64,000 bases of DNA. Origin: Desulfobacterales bacterium (GTDB lineage Bacteria; Desulfobacterota; Desulfobacteria; Desulfobacterales; JAUYIZ01). The stretch is taken from the NCBI GenBank assembly GCA_030688615.1, contig JAUYIZ010000358.1, positions 1,006 to 65,005 on the forward strand. The letters run 5' to 3'. Under the pieces are notes generated by a model. It did not search any database, was not told the DNA's origin, and saw nothing but the letters and a program-made list of their open reading frames with translations. Positions 19,599 through 49,974 of this stretch are shown here, one piece after another. A program made the position numbers and the translations under genes. How positions within the stretch are numbered: the first letter of the stretch is position 1; each line of letters starts with the position of its first letter.

Positions 19599-19622
19599 TT
19601 TTGGTTCCTCTCCCGGTCTTTC

Positions 19623-20819: not shown

Positions 20820-20820
20820 T

Positions 20821-22956: not shown

Positions 22957-23005
22957 CAGTAAAATGTTTTATCAGGCTCCCCGGCAGGAAAATGAGGTCT
23001 TTTTA

Positions 23006-23034
23006 AGAATAATGATATGATCAATTTTTGTCAA
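23006..23034 (-). promoter_or_regulatory. Putative sigma70-type promoter of the lipoprotein operon
   Basis: Minus strand reads TTGACA (23034-23029), a 17-nt spacer, then TATTCT (23011-23006). This lies about 50 nt upstream of the ATG at 22956. Confidence 0.4.
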
Positions 23035-23089
23035 TAGAAAATTGGCCGTATCATCGACAGAATGAGGTCCCGGGCGCCGACCTGCCGTT

Positions 23090-25235: not shown

Positions 25236-25268
25236 AGCGTGTTTCCTCGACTCCGGCGTGTTCAAACA

Positions 25269-25306
25269 GGTAACCGTTCACGGTTATCGGTTCACAGTTT
25301 TTTCAA
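25269..25306. repeat. Heptanucleotide tandem-repeat element, single arm
   Basis: GGTAACC GTTCACG GTTATCG GTTCACA GTTTTTT CAA. It is identical to the reverse complement of 34352-34396 apart from one missing GTTCACA unit. Confidence 0.7.
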
Positions 25307-25315
25307 GGATGGGCA

Positions 25316-27571
25316 CTATTTGGTTTTCATGGTGTAGGCCCCGTCCCAGTCCTTGCCCGGCGGATCCGATTTGAACTCATTACATCGGCTTATGAAGGTT
25401 TTGCTGGGGCCGTCGTCGGGAGACGCCGCCAGGGCGGCATTAAAATAATTGATGGCCTCGTCCCACTGCCGTTCCCGGTATGCATAACGTCCTTTGGCAT
25501 ATTGATCCACGGTTTCCCGGGTCCGGGCATCGACCTCGTTGATATAGCCCATGATCTCATAAATATTCACCGCTTCTTTTTTCCCCACCACATTGATCGA
25601 ATCAATCTGCCGGGTCATGATTCGATCTCCGCATGCTTTGTATGTTGTTTCACTGATCAGGGTGTAAATTCCATACACTTTGTTTACGCCTTCCAGTCGG
25701 GCCGCGGTATTGACGGTATCGCCCATCATCGTGTAATCCATGCGGTTTTTGGATCCCATGTTGCCCACCACGGCACTGCCAGTGCAAAGACCAATCCGCA
25801 TCTTCAGCTCCGGTTTCCCGGCCGCTTTCAGCTCGACCCGCCGCCGGGCTAATATATTCTGCATTTCAACGCAGGCGATACAGGCTCTTTCCGCATGATT
25901 TTCAAGGTCGTTGGGCGCACCGAATAGCGCGATGATGGCGTCCCCTTCAAACTTATCCACGGTTCCTTCAAGATCCAGGATGATTTCGGTCATTTCCGTC
26001 AGGTATTCATTGAGCAATTCAACCAGCGCAGGGGCGGTCAGCTTTTCAGAAATGCTCGTAAACCCCTCCAAATCCGAAAAAAATGCCGTGATTTCACGGT
26101 TTTCCCCGCCTAAAACCAGTTTCTCGGGCGATTCGATCAGCTGTTTCACCACCGATGGAGCAAGGTACGTGGAAAAAGCGCTGCGGATAAACGCTTTCTG
26201 TCTGGATTCGGAAAAGTATCGATACGCCGTGATGCCGGTATAGGCCATCAGGATGACGATCAGTGGATACACAAGGTTTAAAATCCATCCATAGGAGGAA
26301 AAAAGATACTGGCAGAGAACGATATAAAGCACAAAAGCCGTAAACCCTGTTCCGGTGCCGAGGATGACGCCGCCTCTGGGAAGTAAAAACCCGAGTAAAA
26401 GACCGCACAGAACGATTGCCATCATGTCGAAAAGGGCCACCCAGCCGGGTTTCTGCAAAAAATCTTTCGAAAAAATGCTGTCCACGATATTGGCATGAAT
26501 TTCCAGCCCCGGATAAACACTCTCAAAGGGCGTGTTGCGCAAATCATAAATGCCGGTGGCCGTGGCCCCCACAAATACGATTTTATTCTTCAGGATCTCG
26601 TCTGAAACTTTGCCCTGCAGAATATCGGTGATGGAAATATGGGGGAAAATTTTCTGCTTACCCCGGTAATTGATCATGATCCTTCCAATTTCATCGGTCG
26701 GGATCTGCACCCTTCCGATGCGGACCTTTTCAACGCCGTAATCGGCGATTTTTACCGAAAGGGGCTGGTTCCAAAAAGCGCTCATAACCTTAAGGGATAG
26801 CGGGGCGTAAAGGTTGTCCCTGAACTTGAGCACCGCCGGAAGCCATCGAACCACACCGTCCGTTTCGGTGAACATATTAAAAAAACCGGCGTCGCCGGCA
26901 GCGGTTGCGATTTCCCTGATGTTGGACTGGGGCACTTTCCCCGCTAAAAAGGGCAGATTCCGGGCGCCTTCGGAAGCATACTGTACAAATGCATATTTTG
27001 CCCCTTGCACATTCTCCGCATGCGTCTGGATGTCTTTTTCGGTAATATGTTCGATCTCCCTGTCGTCCATTTGAAAAAAATACCCGAGGACCACTTTGGC
27101 CTTGGATTTTTTGATGGCTTCGGCCAGCAGTCGATCATTGTCGGACTCCAGCGTTATCTTTTCCAGGTAGTTCTGAAATTCACTGTTTTGGATCTTAAAA
27201 TCGGCAAGGCTTGTTTTAATTTGGTCCAGGGCGTGGATCAGTCGTTTATTGTCCGGTTCGAGAAATCCCACATCGAACCCGATGACCTTGGCGCCGGCGT
27301 CTGAAAGCCTGTTGATCAGATGGGCGAATTTTTTCCTCGGCCAGACCCAATTTCCCTCCACGGCAATGCTCTTTTCATCCACCACCGCCAGCACCACCTC
27401 CGGTCCCGGTGGTATTTCCCCCCGGGATTGAAATCGCAGATCGATGGTCCTCAATTCCATTAATTCGAGGAAGGGCACTTTCACGGTATAGGCGGCCAGA
27501 CCCAGGATAATGGTGAGGGCGGCAATGGTAAGGGGGCTTAATTTAACATATTTTTTAATGAAGGCGGCCAT
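25316..27571 (-). CDS. Class III adenylate/guanylate cyclase with an N-terminal CHASE2 sensor and a C-terminal TPR-like tail
   Basis: CHASE2 motif: VLAVVDEKSIAVEGNWVWPRKKFAHLINRLSDAGAKVIGFDVGF. Cyclase motifs: ITAFFSDLEGFTSISE, VDKFEGDAIIALFGAP, RIGLCTGSAVVGNMGS, DYTMMGDTVNTAARLEG. Start taken at MAAFIKKY (27571). Confidence 0.8.
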   Translation of the reverse strand: MAAFIKKYVKLSPLTIAALTIILGLAAYTVKVPFLELMELRTIDLRFQSRGEIPPGPEVVLAVVDEKSIAVEGNWVWPRKKFAHLINRLSDAGAKVIGFDVGFLEPDNKRLIHALDQIKTSLADFKIQNSEFQNYLEKITLESDNDRLLAEAIKKSKAKVVLGYFFQMDDREIEHITEKDIQTHAENVQGAKYAFVQYASEGARNLPFLAGKVPQSNIREIATAAGDAGFFNMFTETDGVVRWLPAVLKFRDNLYAPLSLKVMSAFWNQPLSVKIADYGVEKVRIGRVQIPTDEIGRIMINYRGKQKIFPHISITDILQGKVSDEILKNKIVFVGATATGIYDLRNTPFESVYPGLEIHANIVDSIFSKDFLQKPGWVALFDMMAIVLCGLLLGFLLPRGGVILGTGTGFTAFVLYIVLCQYLFSSYGWILNLVYPLIVILMAYTGITAYRYFSESRQKAFIRSAFSTYLAPSVVKQLIESPEKLVLGGENREITAFFSDLEGFTSISEKLTAPALVELLNEYLTEMTEIILDLEGTVDKFEGDAIIALFGAPNDLENHAERACIACVEMQNILARRRVELKAAGKPELKMRIGLCTGSAVVGNMGSKNRMDYTMMGDTVNTAARLEGVNKVYGIYTLISETTYKACGDRIMTRQIDSINVVGKKEAVNIYEIMGYINEVDARTRETVDQYAKGRYAYRERQWDEAINYFNAALAASPDDGPSKTFISRCNEFKSDPPGKDWDGAYTMKTK

Positions 27572-27705
27572 ACCGGATTTCCTTGAGAGCTCTTTTCTAA
27601 AACGGAAGCTAACGGATAGTTGTCTAAATTTGTTGACCTTTTTGTTTTTTATAGTGTAATAATCAAGGATAGTCAATAAAAGTCTGTTCGTTATATTCAT
27701 TTTTA

Positions 27706-32571: not shown

Positions 32572-34206
32572 ATGTCTTATTACCGAGATCTGCGGGAGTA
32601 CCTGTCCGCGCTTGATCAAAAAGGCAAGCTAAGGACCATCGCTGCTGAAATCAACACGGAGACCCAACTTCATCCGCTGGTCAGATGGCAGTTCAGGGGC
32701 CTTGATGAAGCCGACCGCACCGGTTTTTTATTTGAAAACCTCATTGACGGCCGGGGCAAAAAATACAATTGCCGGGTGGCCACGTCGGTCACAGGCGCCT
32801 CCAAGGAGGTTTATGCCATCGGACTTAAAACCGGGGTCGGCGAAATACATGCGGCCTGGACAAAGGCCCTCAACGCGCCGATCCCGCCGAAAATCGTGCG
32901 CAACGGGCCGGTAAAGGAAGAAATTCACAAGGGCGCCGATCTCTGCGTCCACGGCGGCACGGGCGAGTTCGCCATTCCCATCTCCACCAACGGGTGGGAG
33001 AGCCTGCCCAGGCTGACGGCGATTTCCTGGCACACCAAAGACCCCGATACCGGCGTGATCAACGTGGGCACCTACAACGGCACCGTACTGGGGCCGACCC
33101 GCACCAGCTGCCGTTCGCCGCGCACGGATCTGCGTATTCACTGGGATAAACACCGCGCCAAGGGAGAGCCTCTGCCCGCAGCCATCGTTATCGGAGCCGT
33201 GCCGGCCGTCACCATGGTCAGTGTTTCAAAAATTCCCTACGGTTTGAGTGAACTGGATGTGGCCGGAGCTCTGGCGGGTGAACCCATAGAGGTCATCCCC
33301 TGTGAAACGATTGACCTTCTGGTGCCGGCAACCGCCGAGGTTGTCATGGAAGGGTATATATCCACCGAATTTACAGAACCGGATGCCGCCAGCGGTGAAC
33401 ACACCGGATATATGATCGTCGAACACGAGGTCTTTGCTTTTGAAGTCAAATGTATCACCCACAGAAAAAACCCCATCTGGCATGATTTTATCAGTCAGAT
33501 GCCTCCCTCCGAATCGAGCGTCATCCGGGGGATCGCCACGGAGGGCCGGATGCTGAGCTTTCTGGTCAACAGCTGCGGTATTCCGCAGGTAAAGGAAGTT
33601 GCTTTTCACCACTGCGCGGGGGGGTGGCGGATGTGCGTGATCAAGCTGCAGGACATATCGGGCAAGAGAACCCATAACAGCATCGTCTGGCAGGCCCTTC
33701 TGGCTTCTCTGGCAGTCACCACCGATTTCCCCAAGATGGTCATTGCCGTTGACGACGACATCGACACCTGGGATCTTGAGTCGGTGTTCTGGGCGGTCAC
33801 TTTTCGCTATCAGCCCCACCGGGACACCAAAATCATCCAGGGCAGGGCGGCCGGCCTGGACCAGTCCGCCGGTCCCTATACCGTCGAAAAGGAAGAACGC
33901 ATCTACCCGACTTCCAGGTCCGCGCCCCAGGGCGGTTCGGCGATTCTCATGGACGCAACCCGCAAGTGGGCTTACACGCCCATCGCTTTGCCCAAGCGCG
34001 AATACATGGAAGATGCGAAAAAACTCTGGGAAAGCCTGGGCCTGCCGAAACTGTCGCCGAAGAAGCCATGGTATGGCGTATCCCTGGGGATGTGGCCTGA
34101 AGAGCATGAACGCCAGGCCGGGTTGGCCGCCCGGGGAGATTTCAAGGCCGTGGCCGAAGAGCTGATGGCGGGCCGCATCGTACCGCCCTTCAGTTCTACG
34201 AAATAG
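32572..34206 (+). CDS. UbiD-family (de)carboxylase, divergent paralog 1 (544 aa)
   Basis: Overall UbiD layout: KLRTI..EINTETQLHP, NVGTYN, IVIGAVPAV, GEHTGYM, QMPPSESSVIRG. The conserved NxGxYR arginine is Asn here (codon 169, nt 33076-33078). Confidence 0.8.
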   Translation: MSYYRDLREYLSALDQKGKLRTIAAEINTETQLHPLVRWQFRGLDEADRTGFLFENLIDGRGKKYNCRVATSVTGASKEVYAIGLKTGVGEIHAAWTKALNAPIPPKIVRNGPVKEEIHKGADLCVHGGTGEFAIPISTNGWESLPRLTAISWHTKDPDTGVINVGTYNGTVLGPTRTSCRSPRTDLRIHWDKHRAKGEPLPAAIVIGAVPAVTMVSVSKIPYGLSELDVAGALAGEPIEVIPCETIDLLVPATAEVVMEGYISTEFTEPDAASGEHTGYMIVEHEVFAFEVKCITHRKNPIWHDFISQMPPSESSVIRGIATEGRMLSFLVNSCGIPQVKEVAFHHCAGGWRMCVIKLQDISGKRTHNSIVWQALLASLAVTTDFPKMVIAVDDDIDTWDLESVFWAVTFRYQPHRDTKIIQGRAAGLDQSAGPYTVEKEERIYPTSRSAPQGGSAILMDATRKWAYTPIALPKREYMEDAKKLWESLGLPKLSPKKPWYGVSLGMWPEEHERQAGLAARGDFKAVAEELMAGRIVPPFSSTK

Positions 34207-34225
34207 CCGACGGGAACCAAATTTT

Positions 34226-34396
34226 TTCACCGTTTACGGTTTACAGTTACCGGTTCACGGTTTCAAAAACAGAAATTAGAGGAAAAATATGGGGTCTTCT
34301 TTTGAAGATTTGAAGTCAATATCCAAAATGCCTCCATCGTTGCATAGTTCATTGAAAAAACTGTGAACTGTGAACCGATAACCGTGAACGGTTACC
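34226..34396. repeat. Inverted pair of heptanucleotide tandem-repeat arms flanking an 82-bp core
   Basis: The left arm (34226-34269) is related to the reverse complement of the right arm (34352-34396). Both arms are built of GTTCACG/GTTTACG/GTTCACA units. The core carries a 25-codon ORF (34289-34366) preceded by GAGGA. Confidence 0.7.
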
Positions 34397-34421
34397 AAAC
34401 TTTTTTCGTAACAGGTTGCCC

Positions 34422-34967
34422 ATGAAAGAAAAAAAAACCGGGAAAAAGATCGACTCGAGTCTGTTCATTGTGTCGGCACTGATTTTGATCGCCGCAGCCA
34501 TCAGTTTCTTTATCGGAGGGTGGCAGCGGGTCATTTCCGGTCTGACCCAAGGCGTCCTTTTGATGGATAAAGTATGGCTGCGCCTCCTCCTGGGTATCGT
34601 CTTTGCCGGTCTGCTGCAAGAACTGGTGCCCCATGAAGGGGTCGCAAAATGGCTCGGGCCGACCTCCGGGCTGAAAGGCATTCTGATCGGCTCCTACCTG
34701 GGGGTGTTTATGACCAACGCTCCCTATGTCAAGGTACCCTTGATAATGTCTCTTTATGCTGCCGGGGCAGGTATCGGCCCGGTCATCGCGCTGTTGGTAG
34801 GCGGAGAGGGATTGGCGCTGCAAAGTTTATTTGTATGGCAAATTCCGTTTCTCGGTGTGGGCATATCCTTGTCCCGGTATGTTGTTTTTCTGTTCATCCC
34901 CCCGGTGGTCGGGGTTGCCGGTGCAGCGGTGTACCGGTTACTGCCTTTCCAGGAAAAAGGGAAATAA
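34422..34967 (+). CDS. Half-size membrane permease (ArsP/DUF318-like), subunit 1
   Basis: 181-aa hydrophobic protein that is homologous over its whole length to the next gene (GPTSGLKGILIGSYLGVF...GPVIALL...WQIPFLG). A TTG at 34416 is an alternative start. Confidence 0.6.
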   Translation: MKEKKTGKKIDSSLFIVSALILIAAAISFFIGGWQRVISGLTQGVLLMDKVWLRLLLGIVFAGLLQELVPHEGVAKWLGPTSGLKGILIGSYLGVFMTNAPYVKVPLIMSLYAAGAGIGPVIALLVGGEGLALQSLFVWQIPFLGVGISLSRYVVFLFIPPVVGVAGAAVYRLLPFQEKGK

Positions 34968-34974
34968 CGTCATC

Positions 34975-35481
34975 ATGGAAACGACCCTCATCGTTCAAAT
35001 CGCCATGGTTGCCCTGGCCATGGCCCTTGCCTTCTGGAGGGGGCGCTGGCGTCTAATCGCATCGGGACTGAAACGATCCACCCGGACCTTTCAGTCCCTC
35101 TGGTTGCGAATCCTGTTAGGATTCACTCTCAGCGGACTGCTGCAAGACCTGCTGCCCCGTGAGTTCATCGCCAGAATGTTAGGGCCCGCCTCCGGGCTGA
35201 AAGGCATCCTGCTCGGCTCATTTGCGGGCATTTTTTTAACCGGCGGCCCGTATGTCAGAATGCCCATCATAGCCTCTATGGCATCTGCCGGAGCGGCTGC
35301 CGGCCCGGTGATCGCTTTAGTTATGGCGACACAACTCATCGGTCTGTATCCGCTGGTCATATGGGAAATTCCATTCTTCGGGCTCAAACTGCCGCTGGCC
35401 CGGTTTCTGGTATGCCTGGTCATTACCCCCATTGTCGCCGTAGCCGGGGCGGCCCTGTTCCAGTTGTACAATTCAGTGTAA
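34975..35481 (+). CDS. Half-size membrane permease (ArsP/DUF318-like), subunit 2
   Basis: 168 aa, containing GPASGLKGILLGSFAGIF...GPVIALV...WEIPFFG. The ATG lies 7 nt after the upstream stop. Confidence 0.6.
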   Translation: METTLIVQIAMVALAMALAFWRGRWRLIASGLKRSTRTFQSLWLRILLGFTLSGLLQDLLPREFIARMLGPASGLKGILLGSFAGIFLTGGPYVRMPIIASMASAGAAAGPVIALVMATQLIGLYPLVIWEIPFFGLKLPLARFLVCLVITPIVAVAGAALFQLYNSV

Positions 35482-35571
35482 GGGTTCACTGCAAGGGTCA
35501 AGACCGCAGACATCGCCCCGGACCGCCTTTTGGCCTCTTGGCAGGCGCGGCAGTTTCTTGATTTTTTTCGT

Positions 35572-35599
35572 TTGACAAAAACTCAACGTCCTATATTAT
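35572..35599 (+). promoter_or_regulatory. Putative sigma70-type promoter upstream of UbiD paralog 2
   Basis: TTGACA (35572-35577), a 16-nt spacer, then TATTAT (35594-35599). It lies about 55 nt upstream of the GTG start, and AGGAGGG precedes that start. Confidence 0.4.
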
Positions 35600-35654
35600 G
35601 TCGGTTAATTAATTTGCGGTCACTTTTTTCTACGCCTTTCAGGAGGGCTTCCCG

Positions 35655-37064
35655 GTGTACGCGGATTTGAGAGAATATCTGCATCTACTTGAAATTAAGG
35701 GAAAACTGCATAAAATCGAGGTGGAAGTAGACAAGGATTGGGAGATCGCCGCCGTCTGCCGGAACCTGTTTCGCAAAATTCCCGCCAATGACAGACCGGC
35801 GCTCATGTTCCAGCGGGTCAAGGGCTTTGCCGCGCCGGTTGTCGCCGGCGCCCTGGGCGCGTCCAGGCAGGTGTACGCCTTGGCGCTGGGCACGGAGCCG
35901 GAGGATATTCTGGACAAATGGGTCACGGCGCAAGACCGGCTCATCGAACCGACCCTTCTCAGCACCGGGCCCTGCCAGGAAAACAGACGGATGTGCGATG
36001 CGGTTGATTTAACCGCGCTGCCCGTTCCCATATGGACGGTGGAGCATGATCCCGGACCTTTCATCACGTCACCTTATGTCTGCACCAAAGATCCGCAAAC
36101 CCATGTCCAAAACGTCGGCACGTATCGCGTTCAGGTGAAAGGCAGGAATAAAGCGGGTCTCATGGCAGGCAGGAAGCAGGACGGCATGGTCAATATCGCG
36201 AAATGGGAAGCCATGCATCAACCGGCTCCCATCGCCATCGCCATTGGTTCGGACCCTGTCATCGGGGCCGTCTCGGTTTCAAAGATCCCCTACGGTGTGG
36301 CCGAGTTTTCGATGGCCGGCGGCCTGCGGGGCGCACCGGTTGAACTGGTCAAATGCTTGACCGTTCCATTGGAAGTTCCGGCCACTGCGGAAATTGTAAT
36401 CGAAGGGACGATTTCTCCGGGTGTCCGCGCCAAAGAAGGCCCGTTCGGAGAATACACGGGGTACATGGGTTCCTGGGGCAATCACACGGAAATAGACGTT
36501 ACATGCATCACCCATAGAAATAATTATATTTACCAGGCCTTTATCAGCCAGATGCCCCCCAGCGAAAGCAGCCTTATCCGGGGAATCGGCCGGGAAGTGC
36601 CTTTGTTCAAACATCTTAAATACGATTTGGGCCTGCCCGTGAAAGACCTGTGCTATACGGAAAGCGGCGGCAGCGGGGCCATTCTGATCATTTCCATCGC
36701 AAAGCAGTACCCGGGCCAGGCGCGACAAATCGCATCCGCGGCATGGGGCAGGATTAATTCACTGGGCAAATATACCATCGTTGTGGATGACGATATTGAT
36801 ATTCATAACAGCTTTGCCGTTCAGTGGGCACTCAGTTTCCGGGTGCAACCCGACCGCGATATCCATATCGCGGGGCAAATGTCGGCCCTGGGCCTGGATC
36901 CCTCCGTGGCGCCGGCCGATGTGCCGCAACATGACCCCTCAAGACTGATCGGTTCCAGGGTTTTCATCGACGGTACCAGAAAACATGATTATCCGCCGCT
37001 GGCGGTCCCGCCGGAGGAACACATGGATTTTGTCAAACAGAACTGGGGCTCCTATGGTTTCTAA
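35655..37064 (+). CDS. UbiD-family (de)carboxylase, paralog 2 (469 aa)
   Basis: NVGTYRVQV, AIAIGSDPV, KEGPFGEYTGYM and QMPPSESSLIRG are present. The canonical Arg and the E-x4-E motif are retained. Confidence 0.8.
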   Translation: MYADLREYLHLLEIKGKLHKIEVEVDKDWEIAAVCRNLFRKIPANDRPALMFQRVKGFAAPVVAGALGASRQVYALALGTEPEDILDKWVTAQDRLIEPTLLSTGPCQENRRMCDAVDLTALPVPIWTVEHDPGPFITSPYVCTKDPQTHVQNVGTYRVQVKGRNKAGLMAGRKQDGMVNIAKWEAMHQPAPIAIAIGSDPVIGAVSVSKIPYGVAEFSMAGGLRGAPVELVKCLTVPLEVPATAEIVIEGTISPGVRAKEGPFGEYTGYMGSWGNHTEIDVTCITHRNNYIYQAFISQMPPSESSLIRGIGREVPLFKHLKYDLGLPVKDLCYTESGGSGAILIISIAKQYPGQARQIASAAWGRINSLGKYTIVVDDDIDIHNSFAVQWALSFRVQPDRDIHIAGQMSALGLDPSVAPADVPQHDPSRLIGSRVFIDGTRKHDYPPLAVPPEEHMDFVKQNWGSYGF

Positions 37065-37240
37065 TAAGGGCATCGGAAAAAATAAATTCTCCATCTCGCT
37101 TGTCTTTTGGCCCGGCTACTGCGTTGCATCAATGGCCCCATACAACAAGTATGAAACCATCGACGCGCCTTGTATCCGAACCAAATTCCAGCGCAATCTC
37201 AGGGCAATTAATTTTTTCCGAGGCCCTAACAGGTATTACC

Positions 37241-38650
37241 ATGCCCTATAAAGACCTGAGACAATACATAACGGTTCTTGAAAACCGCGGAAAGCTTCAC
37301 CGGGTTACCAAAACCGTCGACAAGGACTGGGAAATCGCCGCCGTCTGCCGCCATCTGTTTGAAACCGTGCCCGGGGCTCAAAGACCGGCGCTGCTGTTCG
37401 AAAGCGTTGCCGGGTTTGCTATTCCGGTTTTGGTCAATGCCATCGGCGGGTCCAGAGAAATATATGCCCTGGGCCTGGACGTGCGGGTCGAAGATATCAA
37501 CCACAGATGGGATCAAGGGCTGCGGCATCCGCTGGCGCCATCTTATGTCGATTACGGCCCCTGCAAGGAAAACATCCTCGCCGGCGACGATGCCGACCTG
37601 ACCCGGCTTCCCGTTCCGGTATGGGTTGCGGCACATGACCCCGGCCCCTATATCACGGCCCCGTACGTATGCACCAAAGATCCGGACACCGGCCGGGCGA
37701 ACCTGGGAACCTGCCGGATGCAGGTCAAGGGCCCCAGGCGGGCCGGAGTCTGCCCTGCCGACAGCCAGAGCATCGGTCTTCTGAACCGGAATGCCGCCCG
37801 GGGAGTACCGACCCCCTGCGCCGTCGTGATCGGCGCGGACCCTGTCGTGGGGATGGTATCGGCAGCCACGCCCTCCTACGGGATGGACGCGTACATGCTG
37901 GCGGGAGGGTTGCGGGGCCAGCCGCTTGAACTCACAGCCTGTCAAACCGTGGATATTGCCGTGCCCGCAACGGCCGAAATCGTCATCGAAGGCCATATCC
38001 CGACGGATCGGGAGGCGGAAGGCCCCTTTGGGGAAACCACGGGGTACATGAGTCCGGCGGGCAATTGTCCCTATATCGACATCACCTGTATAACCTATCG
38101 AAACAACCCGATTTATCAGGCATTTTTCAGTCAGATGCCGCCCAGTGAGCTCAGCCGTATTCATCAAATCGGCAGGGAGCGGATGCTTTTTTACCATCTG
38201 CGCACCCTCGGGCTGCCGGTAAGAGATGTTCATTTCCCGGAATCCGGCGCCAGTGCCGGCATTATTGTAATTTCCATTGGCAGGCTGCAATACCCGGGGC
38301 AAGCCCGTCAGATAATGAATGCGGCCTGGGGCCTGGGCCAGGGGCTGGGCAAGTTCACCATCGTGGTGGACGACGACATTGACATCCGTGACAGTTTCGC
38401 GGTAGAGTGGGCCGTCAGTTTTCGCTCGCAGCCTGAAAGAGACGACTGGATCGTTGGAAATCTTCCCGCCCGGGGACCGGACCCTTCCCGGGCTCCGTCC
38501 GGGGGCCTGCAACAGGACCCGTACGGAGGGATGAGTTCCATTTTCGCAATTGATGCGACCCGGAAACATCCGTACCCGCCCATGGCGCTTCCACCCGGGG
38601 CCCATCTGGACGAGGTGGACAAGAACTGGCAAAAATATGGTTTTAATTAG
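37241..38650 (+). CDS. UbiD-family (de)carboxylase, paralog 3 (469 aa)
   Basis: The start MPYKDLRQYITVLE parallels paralog 2. NLGTCRMQV, VVIGADPV, AEGPFGETTGYM and QMPPSELSRIHQ are present. Confidence 0.8.
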   Translation: MPYKDLRQYITVLENRGKLHRVTKTVDKDWEIAAVCRHLFETVPGAQRPALLFESVAGFAIPVLVNAIGGSREIYALGLDVRVEDINHRWDQGLRHPLAPSYVDYGPCKENILAGDDADLTRLPVPVWVAAHDPGPYITAPYVCTKDPDTGRANLGTCRMQVKGPRRAGVCPADSQSIGLLNRNAARGVPTPCAVVIGADPVVGMVSAATPSYGMDAYMLAGGLRGQPLELTACQTVDIAVPATAEIVIEGHIPTDREAEGPFGETTGYMSPAGNCPYIDITCITYRNNPIYQAFFSQMPPSELSRIHQIGRERMLFYHLRTLGLPVRDVHFPESGASAGIIVISIGRLQYPGQARQIMNAAWGLGQGLGKFTIVVDDDIDIRDSFAVEWAVSFRSQPERDDWIVGNLPARGPDPSRAPSGGLQQDPYGGMSSIFAIDATRKHPYPPMALPPGAHLDEVDKNWQKYGFN

Positions 38651-38670
38651 TATTTGGGAGGCAGGAAAAC

Positions 38671-40365
38671 ATGACGCAAACCGTTGAAACAGTCACAAGC
38701 GATGTCCTGGTGATCGGGGGAGGCATCGGAGGTTTGACAGCGGCGATCAAGGCCAGAGGGCACGATGCCGACGTGCTGGTGGTGGACAAGGGCGGGATCG
38801 GCTGGGCCGGGCAGGTCCCCATTTCAGGGGGGCGGTCCATGGTCATCCTGCCGGAAGAATCCGTAGACAACTGGGTGAAATGGGCTGTCGAGAACGGGGA
38901 ATATCTGAACGATCAGGACTGGACCCGCCGGTTCGGTGAAAAGGTCCACGAGTGCACCATGGATCTGGCCGGTTGGGGGATGCCTTTTTTCAAGCAGGCA
39001 AATCAGCTCAATATCATCCCCAGGATGAAGGCCTACAAGGCAGTGCAATTCCCCGCGAAAAAACTGATGCCCAAGATGTGGAGCCATGCCCGTAAAAAAG
39101 GGGTGCGGATGATGGACAAGGTCGCCATCGTCGACCTGATTTCAAAGGACGGCGCAGTCACCGGCGCCCTGGGCCTGGGATTAACGGACAACCGCTTCTA
39201 CCTGTTCCGGGCCAAAGCTTTCATCATCGCCAACGGTTCCTGCCGCTATAAGCGGCAGAAAGGCTTTAACATGTGCAACGGTGAAGGGGTCGTCATGGCC
39301 TACAGGGCCGGCGCCCGGCTCAGAAATGCCGAGTTTTCCAACACCTACGGGTACTGTTCGGTGGGATACGAAGTGTTTACGCGCAACCCCATATATTACT
39401 TTTTTGTCAATTCCAAGGGGGAAAACATCCTCTTGAAACATTTCCCGGACATGCGGGAAGCCATGGAGACCAAGCGGGAAAAGCAGGACTATTCCAAAAT
39501 CACCGAGGCCATGGCCAGGGAGGTTTTTGCCGGCAACGGGCCGATCTATCTGGACCTTACCCGGTCAACCCCCGAAGAGCTTGATTTTGCCCGTGGCACA
39601 CACCTGGCCAAAGACGGCAGCGTGATCAGCGGTTTTTGGGACACCTTGCCCGCCAAGGGGATTCACCCGGACAGGGAAAAAGTTGAGATGATGCCCATGT
39701 TTGTCGGCGGCCAGGGCCCGATCCGGGTCGATTTGGAATGCCGGACCAATGTTTCACGCCTCTGGGCAATTGGAGATGCCTCTGCCCTGGGCTGCGGCTG
39801 GTCCGGCGCCAGGTCGCCGGGCACCGTGCCGGCCGTTGGAATTCCCTTTGCCTTTGTCAGCGGGTCCCTGGCCGGAACCAGCGCGGGGGTGTTTGTAAAA
39901 GATGCCCCGGAAACGGCCGTTGACATGCGGGAGGTGACAGCAAGAAAAGAAGAGATTCTCTCTCCGCTCAAACGCGGCAAGGGGCCGAATCATCGGGACC
40001 TGATCTGCCAGATACATGAAGCCGTTGTGCCGCTGAATTATAACTTTTTCAGAAAAAAAGACCGCCTGAAAGAGGCCATCGGCATGCTGGAAAAGGCCCG
40101 GGAGGACGTCGGCCACGGTGTGGCCAAGGATTTCCATCAGCTGGTTAAACTGGCCGAGGCCGAGGCCATGGCGGTGTCCGGAGAAATTACCTTCAGGGCG
40201 GCCCTGATGCGGCAAGAGTCCAGGGGGACTCACATGCGGGAGGATTTTCAGGATCAAGACAATGTCGACTGGCTCAAGTGGATCATCGTCGAACAGCAGG
40301 ATGACCGGATGCACCTTTTTACCGAGCCGGTCCCCATGGACAAGTATAAGTACAACATCAAGTAG
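38671..40365 (+). CDS. FAD-dependent oxidoreductase (fumarate reductase/succinate dehydrogenase/AprA-like flavoprotein family)
   Basis: Dinucleotide fold DVLVIGGGIGGLTAAIKA, a GDASALG motif, and a C-terminal RQESRGTHMREDF typical of this flavoprotein family. Confidence 0.7.
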   Translation: MTQTVETVTSDVLVIGGGIGGLTAAIKARGHDADVLVVDKGGIGWAGQVPISGGRSMVILPEESVDNWVKWAVENGEYLNDQDWTRRFGEKVHECTMDLAGWGMPFFKQANQLNIIPRMKAYKAVQFPAKKLMPKMWSHARKKGVRMMDKVAIVDLISKDGAVTGALGLGLTDNRFYLFRAKAFIIANGSCRYKRQKGFNMCNGEGVVMAYRAGARLRNAEFSNTYGYCSVGYEVFTRNPIYYFFVNSKGENILLKHFPDMREAMETKREKQDYSKITEAMAREVFAGNGPIYLDLTRSTPEELDFARGTHLAKDGSVISGFWDTLPAKGIHPDREKVEMMPMFVGGQGPIRVDLECRTNVSRLWAIGDASALGCGWSGARSPGTVPAVGIPFAFVSGSLAGTSAGVFVKDAPETAVDMREVTARKEEILSPLKRGKGPNHRDLICQIHEAVVPLNYNFFRKKDRLKEAIGMLEKAREDVGHGVAKDFHQLVKLAEAEAMAVSGEITFRAALMRQESRGTHMREDFQDQDNVDWLKWIIVEQQDDRMHLFTEPVPMDKYKYNIK

Positions 40366-40386
40366 TTTTATATTATCAGGAGGTAT

Positions 40387-40608
40387 GTGATGGCCATCGA
40401 TGTCCTGGATGAGCAGGCCTGTACGGGATGTGAAATATGCGTGAAGATTTGCCCGGAAGATGTGATATATATGCGGGAGAATGAAAAAAAGGCCTATGTC
40501 AGGTACCCGGAAGATTGCGTGGCATGCTTTGCCTGTGAGTTCTTCTGCCCGGTCGAATGTATTCAGATCAGTAAAGATCGTGCTTATGAGCTCCCGTTTC
40601 CGTACTAA
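40387..40608 (+). CDS. 2x[4Fe-4S] ferredoxin
   Basis: Two cluster motifs, CTGCEICVKICP and CVACFACEFFCP. Start is GTG at 40387 or ATG at 40390. Confidence 0.8.
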   Translation: MMAIDVLDEQACTGCEICVKICPEDVIYMRENEKKAYVRYPEDCVACFACEFFCPVECIQISKDRAYELPFPY

Positions 40609-40675
40609 ATCGGCGTGTATTCGGGGAGCCTGATATTTTACGAATCCGAGTCAGATAAAAAAATGGAAGGTGAAA

Positions 40676-42409
40676 ATGAAAAAACGCCATGTCGCGCTGT
40701 TATCCAAGATTTTGCGGCCGGAAAGCCCCCTGTTTATCGTGGCTTTTTTTACCGCAGCAATCATATGCACCCTCACGGCTGTTATCATCTGGTCCACTTT
40801 CCAGGAGGGGTTGCCCGAATTCAGCGCCAAGTTCACCCTGGCCAACTACGAGGAGGTGCTGCTCTATCCGCTGACACCCATGGCGGCCAAAAATACCATC
40901 ATTGTGGGGCTGGGGACGGTACTGGTGGCCTGTTTTTTTTCCCTCCCCCTGGGCTGGCTGATTCACCGCACCAACATTCCTCTCAAAGAACTTTTCTTAA
41001 CCCTGATATTTCTGCATGTGCTGCTTCCCGGATTTTTAAGGACCATGGGCTGGATCATGCTGTTAAGCCCGGAAATCGGCCTGATAAATCAGATGCTCCG
41101 GGTGATCATCCCGGTTGAAAGGGGCCCCCTGAGCCTCTATAACATCCCCTTTATCGCCCTGTTGCAGGGCGTCTCGCTGACACCGACCCTGTTTTTCATG
41201 GTGGCAGGGGCTTTTGTGGCCATCGACCCTTCCATCGAGGAGTCCGCCGAGGTGTGTGGCGCGTCCCGGTTGCAAAATCTTCGAGCCGTGGCGCTTCCCC
41301 TGGTCATGCCCGCCCTGGCGGCAGGGGCGATCTATACCTTCATGACCGCCATATCCATGTACGAAGTGGCTGCTTTGCTCGGCATGCCCAATAACATCCA
41401 TGTGTTCAGCACGCTGATGTATTCAGCTATTCATCCGGAAGTCGGCCTGCCCAGTTACGGTGTCGCCGGCGTGTACGGCATGCTGGTCCTGGTTCCGACG
41501 GTCGTCGCGCTGCGCTATTACCAGAAGATGTTGAAGCTCAGCCATCATTATGCCACCGTGACCGGGAAAGGCTATCGTCCGAAACTGACGGATCTGGGCC
41601 GCTGGAGATGGATCGGCGCCGGATTTGTCATCCTCTATTATTTAATAGACCTTGTGCTTCCCTTCCTGTCCGTGCTCTGGACCTCCTTTTCGCCGCGCAT
41701 CCAGCTGCCTTCCAGGGCGGCCCTCAAGACGCTTAATTTCGACGGCTACCTTTCCGCCATCCGCATGCTGGGAGACGGCGGCGTAATGCTCAACACCATC
41801 CAGCTTGTGTTTTTTGTGGCCATTATATGTGTGTCGGCAAGCTTGATCATATCCTGGTTTGTCCTGCGGACCAAGCTGCCGGGAAGATATGTTTTAGATA
41901 CCATTTCCATGATACCCCATGCCATTCCCGGCATCGCCTTTGCTTTCTCGGTGGCCTATGTGTCCTTGTTGTTCGTCCGGCAGATTCCTTTCCTGTACGG
42001 CAGTCTGGCGGCGATCATTCTTGCCGATTCCATTCGCCGCATGCCTTTTGCCACCCGGACAATCAGCGGATCATTGATTCAGATCCATAAAGAGCTCGAG
42101 GAAGCCGTAGAGATCAGCGGGGGTTCCAGGATCGTTGCGCTGCGGCGGGTCATCGTGCCGCTGATCACCCCGGCCCTGCTATATACCTTTGTGTGGACCG
42201 CACTGCATGCCTACCGGGAAGTTACGATCGCATTGTTTCTTCAAAGTCCGGGCAATATGGTTATGGCGACCGCCATCTGGCAGCGGTGGCAAAGCGGCGA
42301 AACCTCCGCCGCCGCCGCGCTGGGTGTCATCATGATCGTTTCGATGGGAATCATAGTGCTTTCAATACTGCGCGTCTTTCCTCAGGTCTTCGGAGGCAGA
42401 CGGGCGTAA
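40676..42409 (+). CDS. ABC importer permease, two fused transmembrane domains (FbpB/iron(III)-type architecture)
   Basis: About 577-aa polytopic protein. Two EAA-like regions are present: EESAEVCGASRLQNLRAVALPL and EEAVEISGGSRIVALRRVIVPL. Confidence 0.7.
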   Translation: MKKRHVALLSKILRPESPLFIVAFFTAAIICTLTAVIIWSTFQEGLPEFSAKFTLANYEEVLLYPLTPMAAKNTIIVGLGTVLVACFFSLPLGWLIHRTNIPLKELFLTLIFLHVLLPGFLRTMGWIMLLSPEIGLINQMLRVIIPVERGPLSLYNIPFIALLQGVSLTPTLFFMVAGAFVAIDPSIEESAEVCGASRLQNLRAVALPLVMPALAAGAIYTFMTAISMYEVAALLGMPNNIHVFSTLMYSAIHPEVGLPSYGVAGVYGMLVLVPTVVALRYYQKMLKLSHHYATVTGKGYRPKLTDLGRWRWIGAGFVILYYLIDLVLPFLSVLWTSFSPRIQLPSRAALKTLNFDGYLSAIRMLGDGGVMLNTIQLVFFVAIICVSASLIISWFVLRTKLPGRYVLDTISMIPHAIPGIAFAFSVAYVSLLFVRQIPFLYGSLAAIILADSIRRMPFATRTISGSLIQIHKELEEAVEISGGSRIVALRRVIVPLITPALLYTFVWTALHAYREVTIALFLQSPGNMVMATAIWQRWQSGETSAAAALGVIMIVSMGIIVLSILRVFPQVFGGRRA

Positions 42410-42463
42410 CCTGAGACCTTTGAAAAATGTCAGATAAGGTCTCCCCTTGGGAGGGTTCTGCTG

Positions 42464-43564
42464 ATGTTCAAGGCAACCAATCTACATAAGAGCTACTTTG
42501 TTGACGGCAATCCTGTGCGTGCGCTGCGGGGCGTTAGTTTTACGATTAACAAGGGAGATGTATACACCCTGCTGGGCCCCAGCGGATGCGGCAAAACCAC
42601 CATGCTGCGTTGTATTGCCGGGCTTGAAACACCCGACCAGGGAGAAATCACGCTGCAGGACAAGGTGCTGTTCTCAAGCCGCACCGGAGAATCTGAAGCC
42701 ACCTACCGGCGCAATCTCGGCATGGTGTTTCAATCTTATGCCATATGGCCCCACATGAACGTTTTTGACAATGTTGCCTTTCCCCTTTATTACGGGGGCC
42801 GAAAGCATTCCAAGCAGGAAATAAAGGATTTTGTGAAAAAGGCCCTGCAATCCGTCGAGCTGGAGGGCTTCGAGTCCCGTTCGGCCACCCTGTTGAGCGG
42901 CGGGCAGCAGCAGCGGGTTGCCCTGGCGCGCGCGCTGGTTTATCAGCCCAGTATTTTCCTGCTGGACGAACCCCTGAGCAACCTGGATGCCCGGCTGCGG
43001 GACGAGGTCCGCCAGGAACTCAAGGAACTGGTCAAGCGGCTCAACCTTACCGTCCTGTACGTTACCCACGACCAGGTTGAGGCCCTTTCCCTGTCCGACC
43101 GCATTGCCGTGATGCGCGACGGTCTAATCGTTCAGGAGGGAACCCCTTCCGAGATATACTTAACCCCGCAGGAAACGTTTGTGGGCACCTTCGTGGGCAA
43201 AGCCAACCTGATCCAGGGGGTTTTGGTTGAAAAAGACGGGGCCATGTGCCGGGTGAAAACGGATCTGGGACTGCTTCAGGGGGCGACATCGGGCGTGCCG
43301 GTTCAGAAAGGGGATTCGGTCGTGGTCCTGATCCGGCCCAATATCATCACCGCCGTGACCCAGAAACCCGCGGCCGAGACCAATGTTCTGGAAGCCGAAT
43401 TAGTGGATTCGACTTTTACCGGGGCCCTTACGGAGTGTCAAACCATGTGCGGCAATGTCGCCATAGAAGCCCAGATAGCCGGCTTGATCCAATTCAAGGT
43501 CAAGGAAAAGATATACCTGCAGTTTCCCCCGGAACTTTGCCGCATTCTGCCGGCAAAAGCGTAA
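42464..43564 (+). CDS. ABC transporter ATP-binding protein (PotA/FbpC-like, with a C-terminal TOBE-like domain)
   Basis: All catalytic motifs are intact: GPSGCGKTT, LSGGQQQRVALARAL, FLLDEPLSNLD, VTHDQ. Confidence 0.85.
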   Translation: MFKATNLHKSYFVDGNPVRALRGVSFTINKGDVYTLLGPSGCGKTTMLRCIAGLETPDQGEITLQDKVLFSSRTGESEATYRRNLGMVFQSYAIWPHMNVFDNVAFPLYYGGRKHSKQEIKDFVKKALQSVELEGFESRSATLLSGGQQQRVALARALVYQPSIFLLDEPLSNLDARLRDEVRQELKELVKRLNLTVLYVTHDQVEALSLSDRIAVMRDGLIVQEGTPSEIYLTPQETFVGTFVGKANLIQGVLVEKDGAMCRVKTDLGLLQGATSGVPVQKGDSVVVLIRPNIITAVTQKPAAETNVLEAELVDSTFTGALTECQTMCGNVAIEAQIAGLIQFKVKEKIYLQFPPELCRILPAKA

Positions 43565-47827: not shown

Positions 47828-48694
47828 TTACACCCGGCCGCCGCTCCACCTTAGCTTGGCTTTTAAAACATCAAAGTAGTGCTGGCCCGGCAGGGCGATC
47901 ATCTGGACCGGGCAGGACCCTTTCTGGATAATTATCGTATCCCGGTCGTCCAGCTCGAGGCCTTTCTGCCCGTCGAACGTCAGCAGGATGTCGGAAGATT
48001 TTTCCTCCAGGACTATCTTGATGAGAACCGAATCGGGCACAATCAGCGGGCGGTTGGTCAGGGTGAACGGACAGATGGGCGTCATGATAATGCCGGGGAC
48101 TTCCGGGTGTACAATCGGCCCTCCGGCGGCCAGGGAGTAGGCGGTGGATCCGGTGGGGGTTGAAACGATCAGCCCGTCTGCCCGGTAGATGGTCAGGTAG
48201 TGATCGTTGATATATGTTTTTATGTTGGCCAGCCTGGCCAGGGCGCCCTTGTTGATGACCACGTCGTTGAGCACGGTCTCAGCGGCCACCTGTTTTCCGT
48301 CCCGGAAAACCTTAACCTGCAGGCGCATCCGGGCCATGGTGCTGAATGCGCCGTTTAAAACCGCCTCGGCCGCCGCAAAGAGGCGGTCTTCGGTGGTTTC
48401 CGCCAGAAATCCGACGTCACCGAACTTGACGCCCAGTATCGGGACCGCCCGGTCGCCGATCCAGCGCACCGCGCTTAAAAAGGTCCCGTCCCCGCCCAGA
48501 ACGAAAATGCAGTACAAATCCTCAGGGGCCTGGTCCCCGAGGCCCCCGGCCGGCTTTAGCCCGGGGGACGGGCTTTCTTTCCGGACCACCGCCACCCCTT
48601 TGGACCGGAGCCATTTTTCCAGTTTGTCCGCCTGCCGGCCGGCTGTTTGATCTGATTTTACAACGATGCCTATTTTTTTGGTGAAATCACCCAT
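47828..48694 (-). CDS. nadK: NAD(+) kinase
   Basis: [18 protein letters not shown] and [18 protein letters not shown] are present. Confidence 0.85.
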
Positions 48695-49974
48695 CGGTTC
48701 TTCCCTTTGATTTATTCAGGTCTGTTTTCCAGGGCCTGACGGCCAGTGCGACGCCAATGGCAAGCGTTATCAAGAGCCAGTCCAGACCGATCAGCACGAT
48801 CGAGGCCCATGAATAGCCTTCATAGGGCTTGGCAAGCTCACCGTACAGGTCCCCGATAAGAATGGTTCCCAGAACCAGCGGCACAAAATATTTTACGAGC
48901 AACACCCAGCCCAGCCCGAGTTGAATCGACGATATTTTATTGATGTGCCGCCGTAAAACATCCAGCTTGAAAAACCACCCCACCAGTATGCACTCGGCAA
49001 TTCCCACGATCACGAGGCCGTAATGGGTAAGAAAATGGTCCACGATATCCAGCCACACCAGACCGGACTGGGTGGTAAAGACAATGGAACCTAAAAACCC
49101 CAGGGCGCAAATCAGGCTGACAATCCTTTTGCGGTCCATGCCGAACTTGTCCACCACCGCTGCGGTGAACGCCTCAATGATGGAAATGGATGATGAAACC
49201 CCCGCAATAAAGAGGCTGAGAAAAAAGACGGCGCCGAAAAAATTCCCGCCGGGCATCAGGCTCACGGCCTTCGGGTAGGCCACAAAAGCCAGGCCGATGC
49301 TTTTGGTGACAACCTCCGCAATGGGCTTGCCCTGGGATGCTGCCATGAAACCCAGCACGGAAAAAACGGCAAAGCCTGCAAACAGGGAGAACCCGCTGTT
49401 GATAAACGCGGTCAGGATCGCATTTCTTGTCAGATTTGCCTTTTTGGGCAGATAACTCGCATAGGCGATCATGATGCCGAAACCGAGGCTGAGGGTGAAA
49501 AATATCTGGCTGTACGCATCAATCCAGACCTTTGGTTTGACCAGATACGAAAAATCAGGCGTCAGATAGGCTTTAATGCCGCCCATGGCCCCCTCCAGCG
49601 AAAGCGACCAGAAGACCAGGACCGCGGTGAGAATAAAAAAAGAAGTTGAGGCACCATCCGATAATGACGATGTAGTAAAGTTCGATGCCGAACATGACAA
49701 ATGTCACCGCCCACCAGCCGAGCCATTCCCAGTTCTTTCTTATCTTGGCATATGCCAGCGGGGCAGACCCCACCCGTTCGTGCCCGATGCCGAACTCGAG
49801 GATCAAAAGCGTCACCCCGGCCGTCAAAAGCGCCGCCAGGTAAGGTATCAGAAATGCGCCGCCGCCGTTGCTGTAGGCCATGTAACTGAAACGCCAGATA
49901 TTGCCCAGTCCTATGGCGGACCCCACCGCCGCCATCAGAAAACCGTACTGGCTCTTCCATTGTTCCCTTGCCAT
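48687..49974 (-). pseudogene. Neurotransmitter:sodium symporter (NSS/SNF) family transporter interrupted by a +1 frameshift in a T7 run
   Basis: The N-terminal ORF (49573-49974) has GFLMAAVGSAIGLGNIWRFSYMAYSNGGGAFLIPY. The remainder continues in another frame (48687-49700). The frames cross at the A7 run 49635-49641 (T7 on the coding strand). Removing one T gives a continuous 428-codon ORF reading ...WCLNFFFILTAVLVFW... Confidence 0.7.

Follow-up and report, generated by a model that had tools for sequence, protein, structure and literature searches.

How far can three genes of the UbiD family that share one strand with permeases, a flavoprotein, a ferredoxin and an importer be read as parts of a single pathway? 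The question is raised by a stretch of 64,000 nucleotides from a Desulfobacterales bacterium (contig JAUYIZ010000358.1; this whole stretch is called the window), in which nine co-directional genes of the + strand occupy positions 32572-43564. Interest in UbiD enzymes comes from their reversible (de)carboxylation, with a view to CO2 fixation and to the breakdown of aromatics by anaerobes, and most of their clades are without a known substrate. The answer favoured here, tentatively and with a probability of roughly 0.45, is that the nine genes form a composite locus for the catabolism of an imported organic acid, assembled from two modules that are found separately elsewhere, and that this locus most likely combines uptake, a ferredoxin-linked two-electron step and the decarboxylation, dependent on prenylated flavin mononucleotide (prFMN), of an anionic unsaturated or heteroaromatic acid. 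This answer draws on gene content, domains, residue states and the recurrence of the modules. As a UbiD catabolic cluster the array is of a known sort; two of its features deserve the attention of specialists, a UbiD subfamily in which the catalytic Arg has become Asn and a recurrent ferredoxin-linked partner.

The domains of all nine genes were confirmed by Pfam and NCBIfam. The array is preceded by a GINT1_N/GH43-like gene on the - strand and followed by a convergent lipoprotein-like gene, and it stands as a discrete block because these flanking genes are unrelated to it. Its features are, in order:

32572..34206, + strand: U1, a 544-aa UbiD-family protein with UbiD and UbiD_C domains
34214-34263 and 34358-34407, strand not assigned: the two arms of an inverted repeat in the gap between U1 and pA, found by repeat search
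34422..34967 (alternative TTG start at 34416), + strand: pA, a half-size PF03773 permease of 181 or 183 aa
34975..35481, + strand: pB, a half-size PF03773 permease of 168 aa
35572..35599, + strand: a sigma-70-like promoter match, TTGACA-16-TATTAT, 11/12
35655..37064, + strand: U2, a 469-aa UbiD with UbiD_N, UbiD and UbiD_C domains and a GTG start
37241..38650, + strand: U3, a 469-aa UbiD paralog
38671..40365, + strand: a flavin adenine dinucleotide (FAD) flavoprotein of 564 aa, FAD_binding_2 and Succ_DH_flav_C
40387..40608, + strand: a 73-aa 2x[4Fe-4S] ferredoxin (Fdx) of the Fer4 families
40670..42409, + strand: a fused double-domain ATP-binding cassette (ABC) permease with two BPD_transp_1 stretches
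42464..43564, + strand: an ABC ATPase (ABC_tran, 3.2e-37) with a C-terminal regulatory domain

The first-pass annotation had described a divergent 544-aa UbiD, two 469-aa UbiD paralogs, a fumarate-reductase/AprA-like FAD protein with a 2x[4Fe-4S] ferredoxin, and an ABC permease and ATPase closing the array. These descriptions hold in their genes, coordinates and domains, and the motifs of the flavoprotein and its ferredoxin bear them out. It had also spoken of split permease genes; two half-size permeases are indeed present, and as paralogs with a single repeat each they are more aptly called half-permeases.

The UbiD paralogs and their active sites

The three UbiD proteins differ in how closely they follow the family models. 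U2 and U3 each have UbiD_N, UbiD and UbiD_C above the Pfam cutoffs; in U1 the UbiD domain (8.5e-46) and UbiD_C are above cutoff and the N-domain is unmatched. On the NCBIfam model TIGR00148 the scores are 307.9 bits for U2, 296 for U3 and 222.6 for U1, against a cutoff of 244.85. U2 and U3 are 56% identical to each other, and U1, a member of a ~540-aa subfamily with a C-terminal extension of ~75 aa, is 36-38% identical to either of them. The best solved relative of all three is PtHmfF (232 bits for U2, 235 for U3 and 146 for U1), to which U2, U3 and U1 are 38%, 39% and 32% identical; E. coli UbiD and a VdcC-type enzyme come next among solved structures, and phthaloyl-CoA decarboxylase is remote. 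All three paralogs score far under the cutoffs of the NCBIfam equivalogs VdcC, UbiD, MqnL-type, PpcA/B and BagN. In a neighbour-joining (NJ) tree, built with no bootstraps, U2 groups with the relatives P0002-P0004 and U3 with P0088, the UbiD of the related locus L172 (related loci and proteins carry L and P numbers here); both groups are sister to a very large 473-aa family of Binatia, Methylomirabilota and Proteobacteria. U1 falls in a separate ~540-aa clade, and HmfF in another branch. The first-pass annotation had proposed placing the UbiDs against the characterised clades, and by these scores, identities and branches none of the three lies inside one.

The nearest relatives of U1 are a protein from a Desulfobacterales metagenome-assembled genome (MAG; P0122, 80% identical) and one from L002 (77%). 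U2 is 68% identical to P0004, the gene of which lies immediately ahead of the U1 ortholog in L002, and a 2.4-kb contig is the only record of the exact U2 protein. For U3 the nearest relative in the representative library, which is clustered at 50% identity, is 58% identical; its L172 ortholog (68%) was reached through the context of the flavoprotein.

The active sites set the paralogs further apart. Residue positions are given in Fdc1 numbering and were transferred via an alignment to HmfF that is gap-free around N-x4-R, so that the assignment of the Arg position is secure. In Fdc1, R173 is involved in maturation and catalysis, and E233 in the binding of Mn2+ and the prFMN phosphate. U2 keeps the complete set of N168, R173, E233, E277 and E282 (E263/R158/E268-type positions in U2); at the H191 position it reads 'QD', as do 116 of its 119 relatives. 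In U1, R173 is replaced by Asn169 and E277 by Asp271, and E282 (Glu276), E233 (Glu227) and N168 (Asn164) are kept. This pattern is shared by its subfamily: among 118 relatives at least 51% identical to U1, the Arg position is Asn in 114 and the E277 position Asp in 111, with E282, E233 and N168 invariant. Since P0229, a basal member of the clade, still has Arg and Glu, the change is derived and was then conserved. The subfamily (P0122-P0240) is hosted by Chloroflexota, Desulfobacterota, Binatia and Acidobacteriota, and occurs in soil metagenomes. Such a large group with Asn for the catalytic Arg, a residue supposed to be essential, implies exceptions to the accepted mechanism or else a pseudo-enzyme of wide occurrence. 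In the gapped loop that holds the H191 column, U1 reads Asp, U2 'QD' and U3 'QS'; the change from His to Asp in U1 was dismissed as a defect particular to the window, as Asp stands there in 18 of the 118 relatives too.

In U3 the Arg/Glu/Glu set and N168 are kept, but E233 is replaced by Ala217, where all of the ~237 relatives examined have Glu. The L172 ortholog of U3 has Glu and His in the places of Ala217 and 'QS'. An assembly error was ruled out, as the Ala217 codon (GCG, 37889-37891) is identical and variant-free in contigs from two independent runs. Judged by the residues present, the site for Mn and the prFMN phosphate in U3 is degenerate. Given the published roles of R173 and E233, only U2 of the three paralogs is predicted to fit a standard active enzyme, and its residue set makes it a likely active decarboxylase. 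The complete U2 and the degenerate U3 offer a natural pair for asking whether UbiD paralogs form mixed oligomers.

Flavoprotein, ferredoxin and transporters

The FAD protein belongs, as judged from sequence and model comparison, to an uncharacterised family of the FrdA/SdhA/AprA fold, with 483 matches at E <= 1e-20 that come chiefly from Chloroflexota, Desulfobacterales and metagenomes. Its top match among Protein Data Bank (PDB) sequences is 8a8o_A (1.6e-23), the alpha subunit of a 3'-phosphoadenosine 5'-phosphosulfate (PAPS) reductase. The AlphaFold model (pLDDT 90.4) gives a TM of about 0.8 to PAPS reductase, FrdA, SdhA and AprA alike. The protein keeps an invariant R-x-E-x-R...R-x-D (ESRGTH) block. 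In FrdA, SdhA and NadB, an Arg block of the ESRGTH type binds the carboxylate of the substrate. No HPT motif is present in the FAD protein, and the stretch that we take to be the position of covalent FAD attachment reads GWAGQ, with no His. All NCBIfam equivalogs are far under their cutoffs, the best being PRK08275 (164 vs 587); the aprA model TIGR02061 gives 53.8 against 641.75, and NF005331 gives 119.9 against 557. A true adenosine 5'-phosphosulfate (APS) reductase and a true fumarate reductase were both rejected on model scores, motifs and partner subunit.

The partner is the small ferredoxin, which carries two CxxCxxCxxxCP motifs, is encoded 21 bp from the FAD gene, and has 8a8o_C, the beta subunit of the PAPS reductase, among its PDB matches. 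A 2x[4Fe-4S] ferredoxin of 70-73 aa adjoins the FAD homolog in every close context examined: the same family (52-75% identical) lies beside it in L087, L088-090, L172 and L173, and a more distant pairing occurs in L034 and L097. The layout is therefore AprAB-like, as the small 2x[4Fe-4S] partner is conserved, and the fold is of the generic FrdA type, as the TM values are alike.

Two kinds of transporter complete the array. Full-length permeases of PF03773 (ArsP_1 / SaoE / SO_0444-type) have ~300-350 aa and two homologous repeats. pA and pB match ArsP_1/PF03773 at 46.6 and 38.5 bits (cutoff 32.3), and neither has the length or the second repeat; each covers one repeat (Pfam positions 173-285 of 294, NCBIfam 11-133 of about 351). 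Their genes are 7 bp apart, and pA has several hydrophobic segments. As each is a single repeat and the two are paralogs with 48% identity, they likely form a heterodimer that would rebuild the PF03773 fold. The ABC permease is of the PhnU2/FbpB-like importer class (PhnU2 6e-33, under cutoff) and is 70% identical to the permease of L002 and 34% to that of L172; the ATPase is PotA/PhnT2-like (PhnT2 313 bits, PotA 309 bits, both under cutoff). L002 and L172 carry one to three genes for substrate-binding proteins (SBPs) beside the ABC permease, and a tblastn search with four SBPs from these two loci found no SBP gene or pseudogene in the 64-kb window.

Among other expected partners, no Flavoprotein/PF02441 match for ubiX was obtained in six-frame open reading frames (ORFs) of at least 140 aa plus gene-sized ORFs of the whole window, and neither an AMP-binding CoA ligase nor a benzoyl-CoA-reductase-type or other aryl-CoA reductase gene was seen in its ORFs; these profile scans agree with what had been noted at first sight on ubiX, CoA ligase and reductase genes. 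The gene ubiX is often unlinked from UbiD genes, and its absence nearby does not exclude membership in the UbiD family. The only haloacid dehalogenase (HAD) gene in the window lies at 49996-50628, 6 kb from the array and on the opposite strand.

Recurrence of the modules and competing explanations

Parts of the array have been found together in other genomes. For example, L172 (7.6 kb) carries the C-terminal fragment of a UbiD, a ferredoxin (53% identical), a FAD protein (50%), the U3 ortholog, an SBP, an ABC permease of the same class and a bicupin. In L002, a 16-kb locus from the sample that also yielded L172, the U2 ortholog is followed on the same strand, after a gap of 19 bp, by the U1 ortholog, two SBPs, a further UbiD, an SBP and another UbiD; the other strand encodes the orthologous ABC permease, a short-chain dehydrogenase/reductase (SDR), an M24 hydrolase, an aldehyde:ferredoxin oxidoreductase (AFOR) and, at the end of the contig, a half-permease 34% identical to pB. 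In L087, a Chloroflexota MAG, ferredoxin (56%) and FAD protein (55%) are separated by one hydrolase gene from a U1-type UbiD (59%), and two further FAD paralogs and another UbiD are also present. A looser association of FAD/Fdx with UbiD is seen in L097 and L034, and the same class of ABC permease lies beside these UbiD clades in L024, L027, L093, L096 and L152. The co-conservation of parts of the neighbourhood in L172, L002 and L087 favours a functional connection of the FAD/Fdx pair and of ABC importers of this class with these UbiD clades. The link between uncharacterised UbiD clades and a ferredoxin-coupled flavoprotein of the FrdA/AprA fold thus recurs across phyla, and it would tie prFMN chemistry to low-potential electron transfer. 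The first-pass annotation had called for a check of whether the neighbourhood is conserved: the modules do recur, but the whole array is not one conserved operon. Read from these gene orders, the array is a fusion of separable modules whose links are facultative.

Two modules can accordingly be told apart, each known on its own from related bacteria of groundwater or sediment. Module A would unite a U3-type UbiD with an ABC importer and with the AprAB-like flavoprotein and ferredoxin, and module B adjacent U2-type and U1-type UbiDs with an ABC permease of the same class and a half-size PF03773 permease. In the composite locus, the ABC importer would take up an anionic acid whose carboxylate is alpha,beta-unsaturated or (hetero)aromatic, by means of a binding protein encoded elsewhere. 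The flavoprotein would grip the acid group through the ESRGTH Arg and run a two-electron step, with electrons passing via the 2x[4Fe-4S] subunit; this step could be the desaturation of a saturated acid, yielding an unsaturated carboxylate ready for UbiD, or a redox reaction on the substrate or the product. U2 would then carry out the prFMN-dependent decarboxylation, with prFMN supplied by a UbiX encoded elsewhere in the genome. U3, with its degenerate cofactor site, and U1, with Asn for Arg, would be partner subunits or act on other intermediates, and the pA/pB heterodimer would carry substrate or product across the membrane. The substrate class, the direction and order of the steps and the complexes are what we infer from the gene set.

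FAD_binding_2 enzymes make or reduce a double bond adjacent to a carboxylate. UbiD enzymes decarboxylate unsaturated or heteroaromatic carboxylates. In both families, FAD_binding_2 and UbiD/Fdc1 (PMC7976604, PMC8379154), the carboxylate that is acted on thus neighbours a C=C or C-X bond. By analogy, therefore, the flavoprotein and UbiD steps would fit each other chemically. The neighbours of related loci, searched with NCBIfam and Pfam, gave only generic hints at the substrate (M24 creatinase/ectoine-hydrolase-like, SDR, Amidohydro_2, isochorismatase-like, bicupin and AFOR proteins, and NMT1/TctC/TAXI binding proteins), and no specific compound could be named from them.

Two kinds of neighbour in these loci may be described on their own. 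The bicupin, weakly similar to 5-aminosalicylate/gentisate 1,2-dioxygenase, recurs beside U1-type and U3-type UbiDs (49-51% identical), at L172:6672-7637 (+), L096:10751-11839 (+) and L097:3-686 (-). An AFOR gene adjoins U2/U1-type UbiDs at L002:4603-6423 (-) and L096:564-2420 (-), and since it does so in both loci, a ferredoxin-linked oxidoreductase partner appears to recur in another form. From these gene contents, the ferredoxin-linked partner would thus take two forms, FAD/Fdx in the window and AFOR in L002 and L096.

Several observations weigh against the composite locus, and some of them are also the best arguments for its strongest rival. According to the latter, which we hold to be unlikely though a serious candidate, the array falls into independent units with separate substrates and no shared pathway, and is a catabolic island in which paralog-rich catabolic genes have merely accumulated together; if the genes are functionally unrelated, the locus is one more catabolic island of a groundwater Desulfobacterales-like bacterium. 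The FAD/Fdx pair occurs with no UbiD in three of five independent contexts (L088-090, L173 and the P0243 contig), where its neighbours are TRAP/TAXI, MFS or HAAT-ABC transporters, M24 creatinase-like hydrolases and SDRs, and for this reason the substrate of the pair could be another one. Seen from the UbiDs, the link to FAD/Fdx is rare: it is present in ~1 of 21 loci in the closest U1 clade and in 1-2 of 80 UbiD loci in general. U1-type genes are mostly the sole UbiD of their locus, since most of the 106 U1-type loci are without a second UbiD or a FAD homolog, and they stand among varied neighbours: in the closest U1 clade the commonest are NMT1-type and SBP_bac-type binding proteins, other UbiDs, TctC, old yellow enzyme (OYE) and molybdenum (Mo) enzymes, and Amidohydro_2 and isochorismatase-like proteins are met as well. 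The gene order is different in every related locus. The gene for the binding protein of the importer is absent from the window, and the degenerate site of U3 could equally reflect a decaying gene. Independent units would also suit the wider gaps of 215, 173 and 176 bp ahead of pA, U2 and U3, and the promoter-like site before U2. On the other hand, U3, the FAD protein, the ferredoxin and the ABC genes are only 20-61 bp apart; in L172 FAD/Fdx again adjoins the ortholog of U3, together with an importer of this ABC class; L087, from another phylum, has FAD/Fdx two genes from a U1-type UbiD; and a UbiD in two of five FAD/Fdx contexts is far above chance for a gene with few copies per genome. These points speak against an island of independent units.

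Improbable, in our estimate, is a stronger version of the link, in which FAD/Fdx is a dedicated redox partner of UbiD in anaerobes and the U1 proteins with Asn for Arg are a lineage with altered chemistry, not inactive subunits. The partner may be an O2-independent prFMNH2 oxidase that gives the active iminium form, or it may be the desaturating half of a 'dehydrogenate, then decarboxylate' route on saturated (alicyclic) acids.

A third explanation takes the three UbiDs as a hetero-oligomeric carboxylase of the phenylphosphate, benzene or naphthalene type, which activates an unsubstituted aromatic while FAD/Fdx supplies or removes electrons. Clusters with several UbiDs are a hallmark of such enzymes, as in N47, where the naphthalene carboxylase has four UbiD-like proteins in a nine-gene cluster (PMC12016498). 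The adjacency of U2 and U1 types is conserved in L002, pairs of a UbiD with a U1-type protein also occur in L011, L022 and L015, and beside a canonical U2, both U1 and U3 have the look of non-canonical partners; L174 has a U1-type and a second UbiD with a 98-aa protein, a PaaK-like CoA ligase and a sigma-54 activator. By analogy with Ppc-type systems it is possible that canonical and non-canonical UbiD paralogs work as a complex. Nevertheless, the three UbiDs score 102-165 bits on the PpcA/PpcB models (TIGR02723/TIGR02724), whose cutoffs are 469-565, two permease genes stand between U1 and U2, the window is without PpcC/PpcD-like small or phosphatase subunits, CoA ligase or aryl-CoA reductase, and an ABC importer for charged solutes suits the decarboxylation of an imported acid better than the activation of a hydrocarbon. 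We consider this explanation very improbable. The first-pass annotation had drawn the analogy with multi-subunit UbiD enzymes; nothing shows such an enzyme here, and the mostly solitary U1-type genes speak against it.

Hardly credible, finally, is a pair that serves as an oxygen-independent maturase oxidising UbiD-bound prFMNH2 to the iminium form and not as a substrate enzyme: the O2-free oxidative maturation of prFMN is an acknowledged open question (PMC10865409), FAD/Fdx lies directly among the UbiD genes and again beside UbiDs in L172 and L087, and a flavin/Fe-S two-electron oxidoreductase is chemically suited to the task, but the pair often accompanies transporters and hydrolases with no UbiD, several FAD paralogs are found per contig (three in L087, two on the 83-kb L173 contig), as is typical of substrate-diversified catabolic enzymes but untypical of a cofactor maturase, and the protein keeps the Arg motif of the substrate-carboxylate type.

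Comparison with described systems leaves the composite locus apart from each of them. HmfF, a 2,5-furandicarboxylate decarboxylase whose UbiX-type partner is HmfG (PtHmfF 6H6V/6H6X), shares with U2 the catalytic Asn/Arg/Glu/Glu/Glu set, and some U2 relatives have been automatically named '2,5-furandicarboxylate decarboxylase 1' by JGI. However, with 32-39% identity HmfF falls in another NJ branch, the motifs SQMPPSE(S/L)S and DATRK-x-YPP that are common to U1, U2 and U3 are both absent from it (as read from the alignment), and no hmfG/ubiX or other hmf genes are near the array; membership of the HmfF clade was rejected on identity, branch and the missing hmf operon context. PpcABCD and the putative benzene (AbcDA) and naphthalene carboxylases likewise bring several UbiD paralogs together in an anaerobe, but the array is without their small gamma subunit, HAD phosphatase delta, CoA ligase and UbiX, and its own partners, a flavoprotein, a ferredoxin and an importer, are unlike those of the naphthalene carboxylase cluster used for comparison (PMC12016498); membership of Ppc/Abc was rejected on the model scores given above. 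A phthaloyl- or isophthaloyl-CoA decarboxylase (PCD, 8oz5/8pmk) was also rejected, with 47-68 bits and no CoA-activating gene in the window.

Among redox systems, AprAB and the AprAB-like PAPS reductase of Methanothermococcus thermolithotrophicus (8A8O) share with the array a FAD alpha subunit and an adjacent small 2x[4Fe-4S] beta subunit. They differ in that identity is about 20%, the beta subunit has 73 aa in the array and 104-150 aa in the known enzymes, no sulfate-activation genes lie near the array, and its FAD family has expanded into paralogs beside organic-acid transporters. FrdA/SdhA, L-aspartate oxidase, TcuA and KstD share FAD_binding_2 and Succ_DH_flav_C, the TM of about 0.8 and the ESRG(T/A)H Arg motif; in contrast to FrdA/SdhA, the partner in the array is a clostridial-type ferredoxin, not a three-cluster FrdB/SdhB, and there is no membrane anchor. 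Desaturation or reduction of the FrdA type next to a carboxylate would, by analogy, mesh with UbiD action on unsaturated acids.

Another group is formed by the UbiDs for N-heterocycles, namely HudA/PA0254 (pyrrole-2-carboxylate), AnInD (indole-3-carboxylate) and XCDC (xanthine-8-carboxylate, Cupriavidus LA-1), which stand outside the classical clades and sit in catabolic clusters with amidohydrolases and redox enzymes (PMC7976604, PMC8988006, PMC12391406). The loci related to the array have similar neighbours (Amidohydro_2, M24, isochorismatase-like and Mo-hydroxylase). They differ from the array in clade, with a low sequence similarity (PA0254 96-130 bits, AnInD 61-100 bits), and in their clusters, which carry ubiX and are without an AprAB-like partner, the reverse of the array. 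No UbiD cluster with an AprAB-like flavoprotein/ferredoxin partner, or with this partner set, was found described in the literature, in line with the first-pass claim that the known UbiD systems do not have it.

Regulatory features and further genes of the window

Short gaps (7-61 bp) are found within pA-pB and within the block from U3 to the ABC ATPase, and no convincing terminator was found in any gap of the array. Most of its genes have a good Shine-Dalgarno sequence, with AGGAGG upstream of U1 and of the GTG start of U2. The promoter-like TTGACA-16-TATTAT in the gap before U2 is the top sigma-70-like match of the region and makes an internal promoter there a plausible candidate site; the nine sigma-70-like matches of the region are not above chance (7.5 +/- 2.9 in shuffled sequence). 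The inverted repeat in the gap between U1 and pA has arms of 50 nt, imperfect and 72% complementary, with a 94-nt spacer, and is built from tandem heptamers of the GTGAAC(C/T/G) type, of which a comparable pair lies at 25273-25295; the heptamer is not enriched window-wide. An Rfam search of the array at E <= 1, the inverted repeat included, gave no riboswitch or other known RNA. The repeat may be a site of regulation, a structured RNA or a small repetitive element.

The GC content at third codon positions is 0.63-0.73 in the array, inside the range of the remaining window (0.47-0.74); being host-like, it gives no sign of recent horizontal transfer. Among sequencing runs, only DNA runs from groundwater metagenomes contain the sequence, with strain-level variation between two groundwater samples, as run X2 departs from the window at 37968, 38192 and 38582. 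A minor C>A variant at 37869, inside U3, comes from run X1, where a single short contig of low depth shows it close to the contig end.

The L174 locus of a Deltaproteobacteria MAG (GCA_037199925.1) encodes at 3031-10863 the sigma-54 activator, a 482-aa UbiD, the 98-aa protein, the PaaK-like CoA ligase, the U1-type UbiD (64% identical to U1) and an Amidohydro_2 protein, a layout that recalls the putative benzene carboxylase cluster. Elsewhere in the window, a TAXI-type TRAP transporter (3590-6781, - strand) consists of an NMT1_3 binding protein and a fused DctQM, a type that is also found beside the FAD/Fdx homologs of L088-090 and the P0243 contig. At 48687-49700 (- strand) an ORF of 337 aa matches the SNF sodium:neurotransmitter symporter family at Pfam positions 212-508 of 524, and from this coverage it looks like an N-terminally truncated gene fragment. 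Finally, a run of envelope and signalling genes extends over 11188-27700, with two FecR-domain proteins, an LPP20-like protein, a CsgG-like protein with TPR, an fn3 protein, a GNA1162-like protein with beta-helix, and two CHASE2 proteins, one of them with an adenylate/guanylate cyclase domain.

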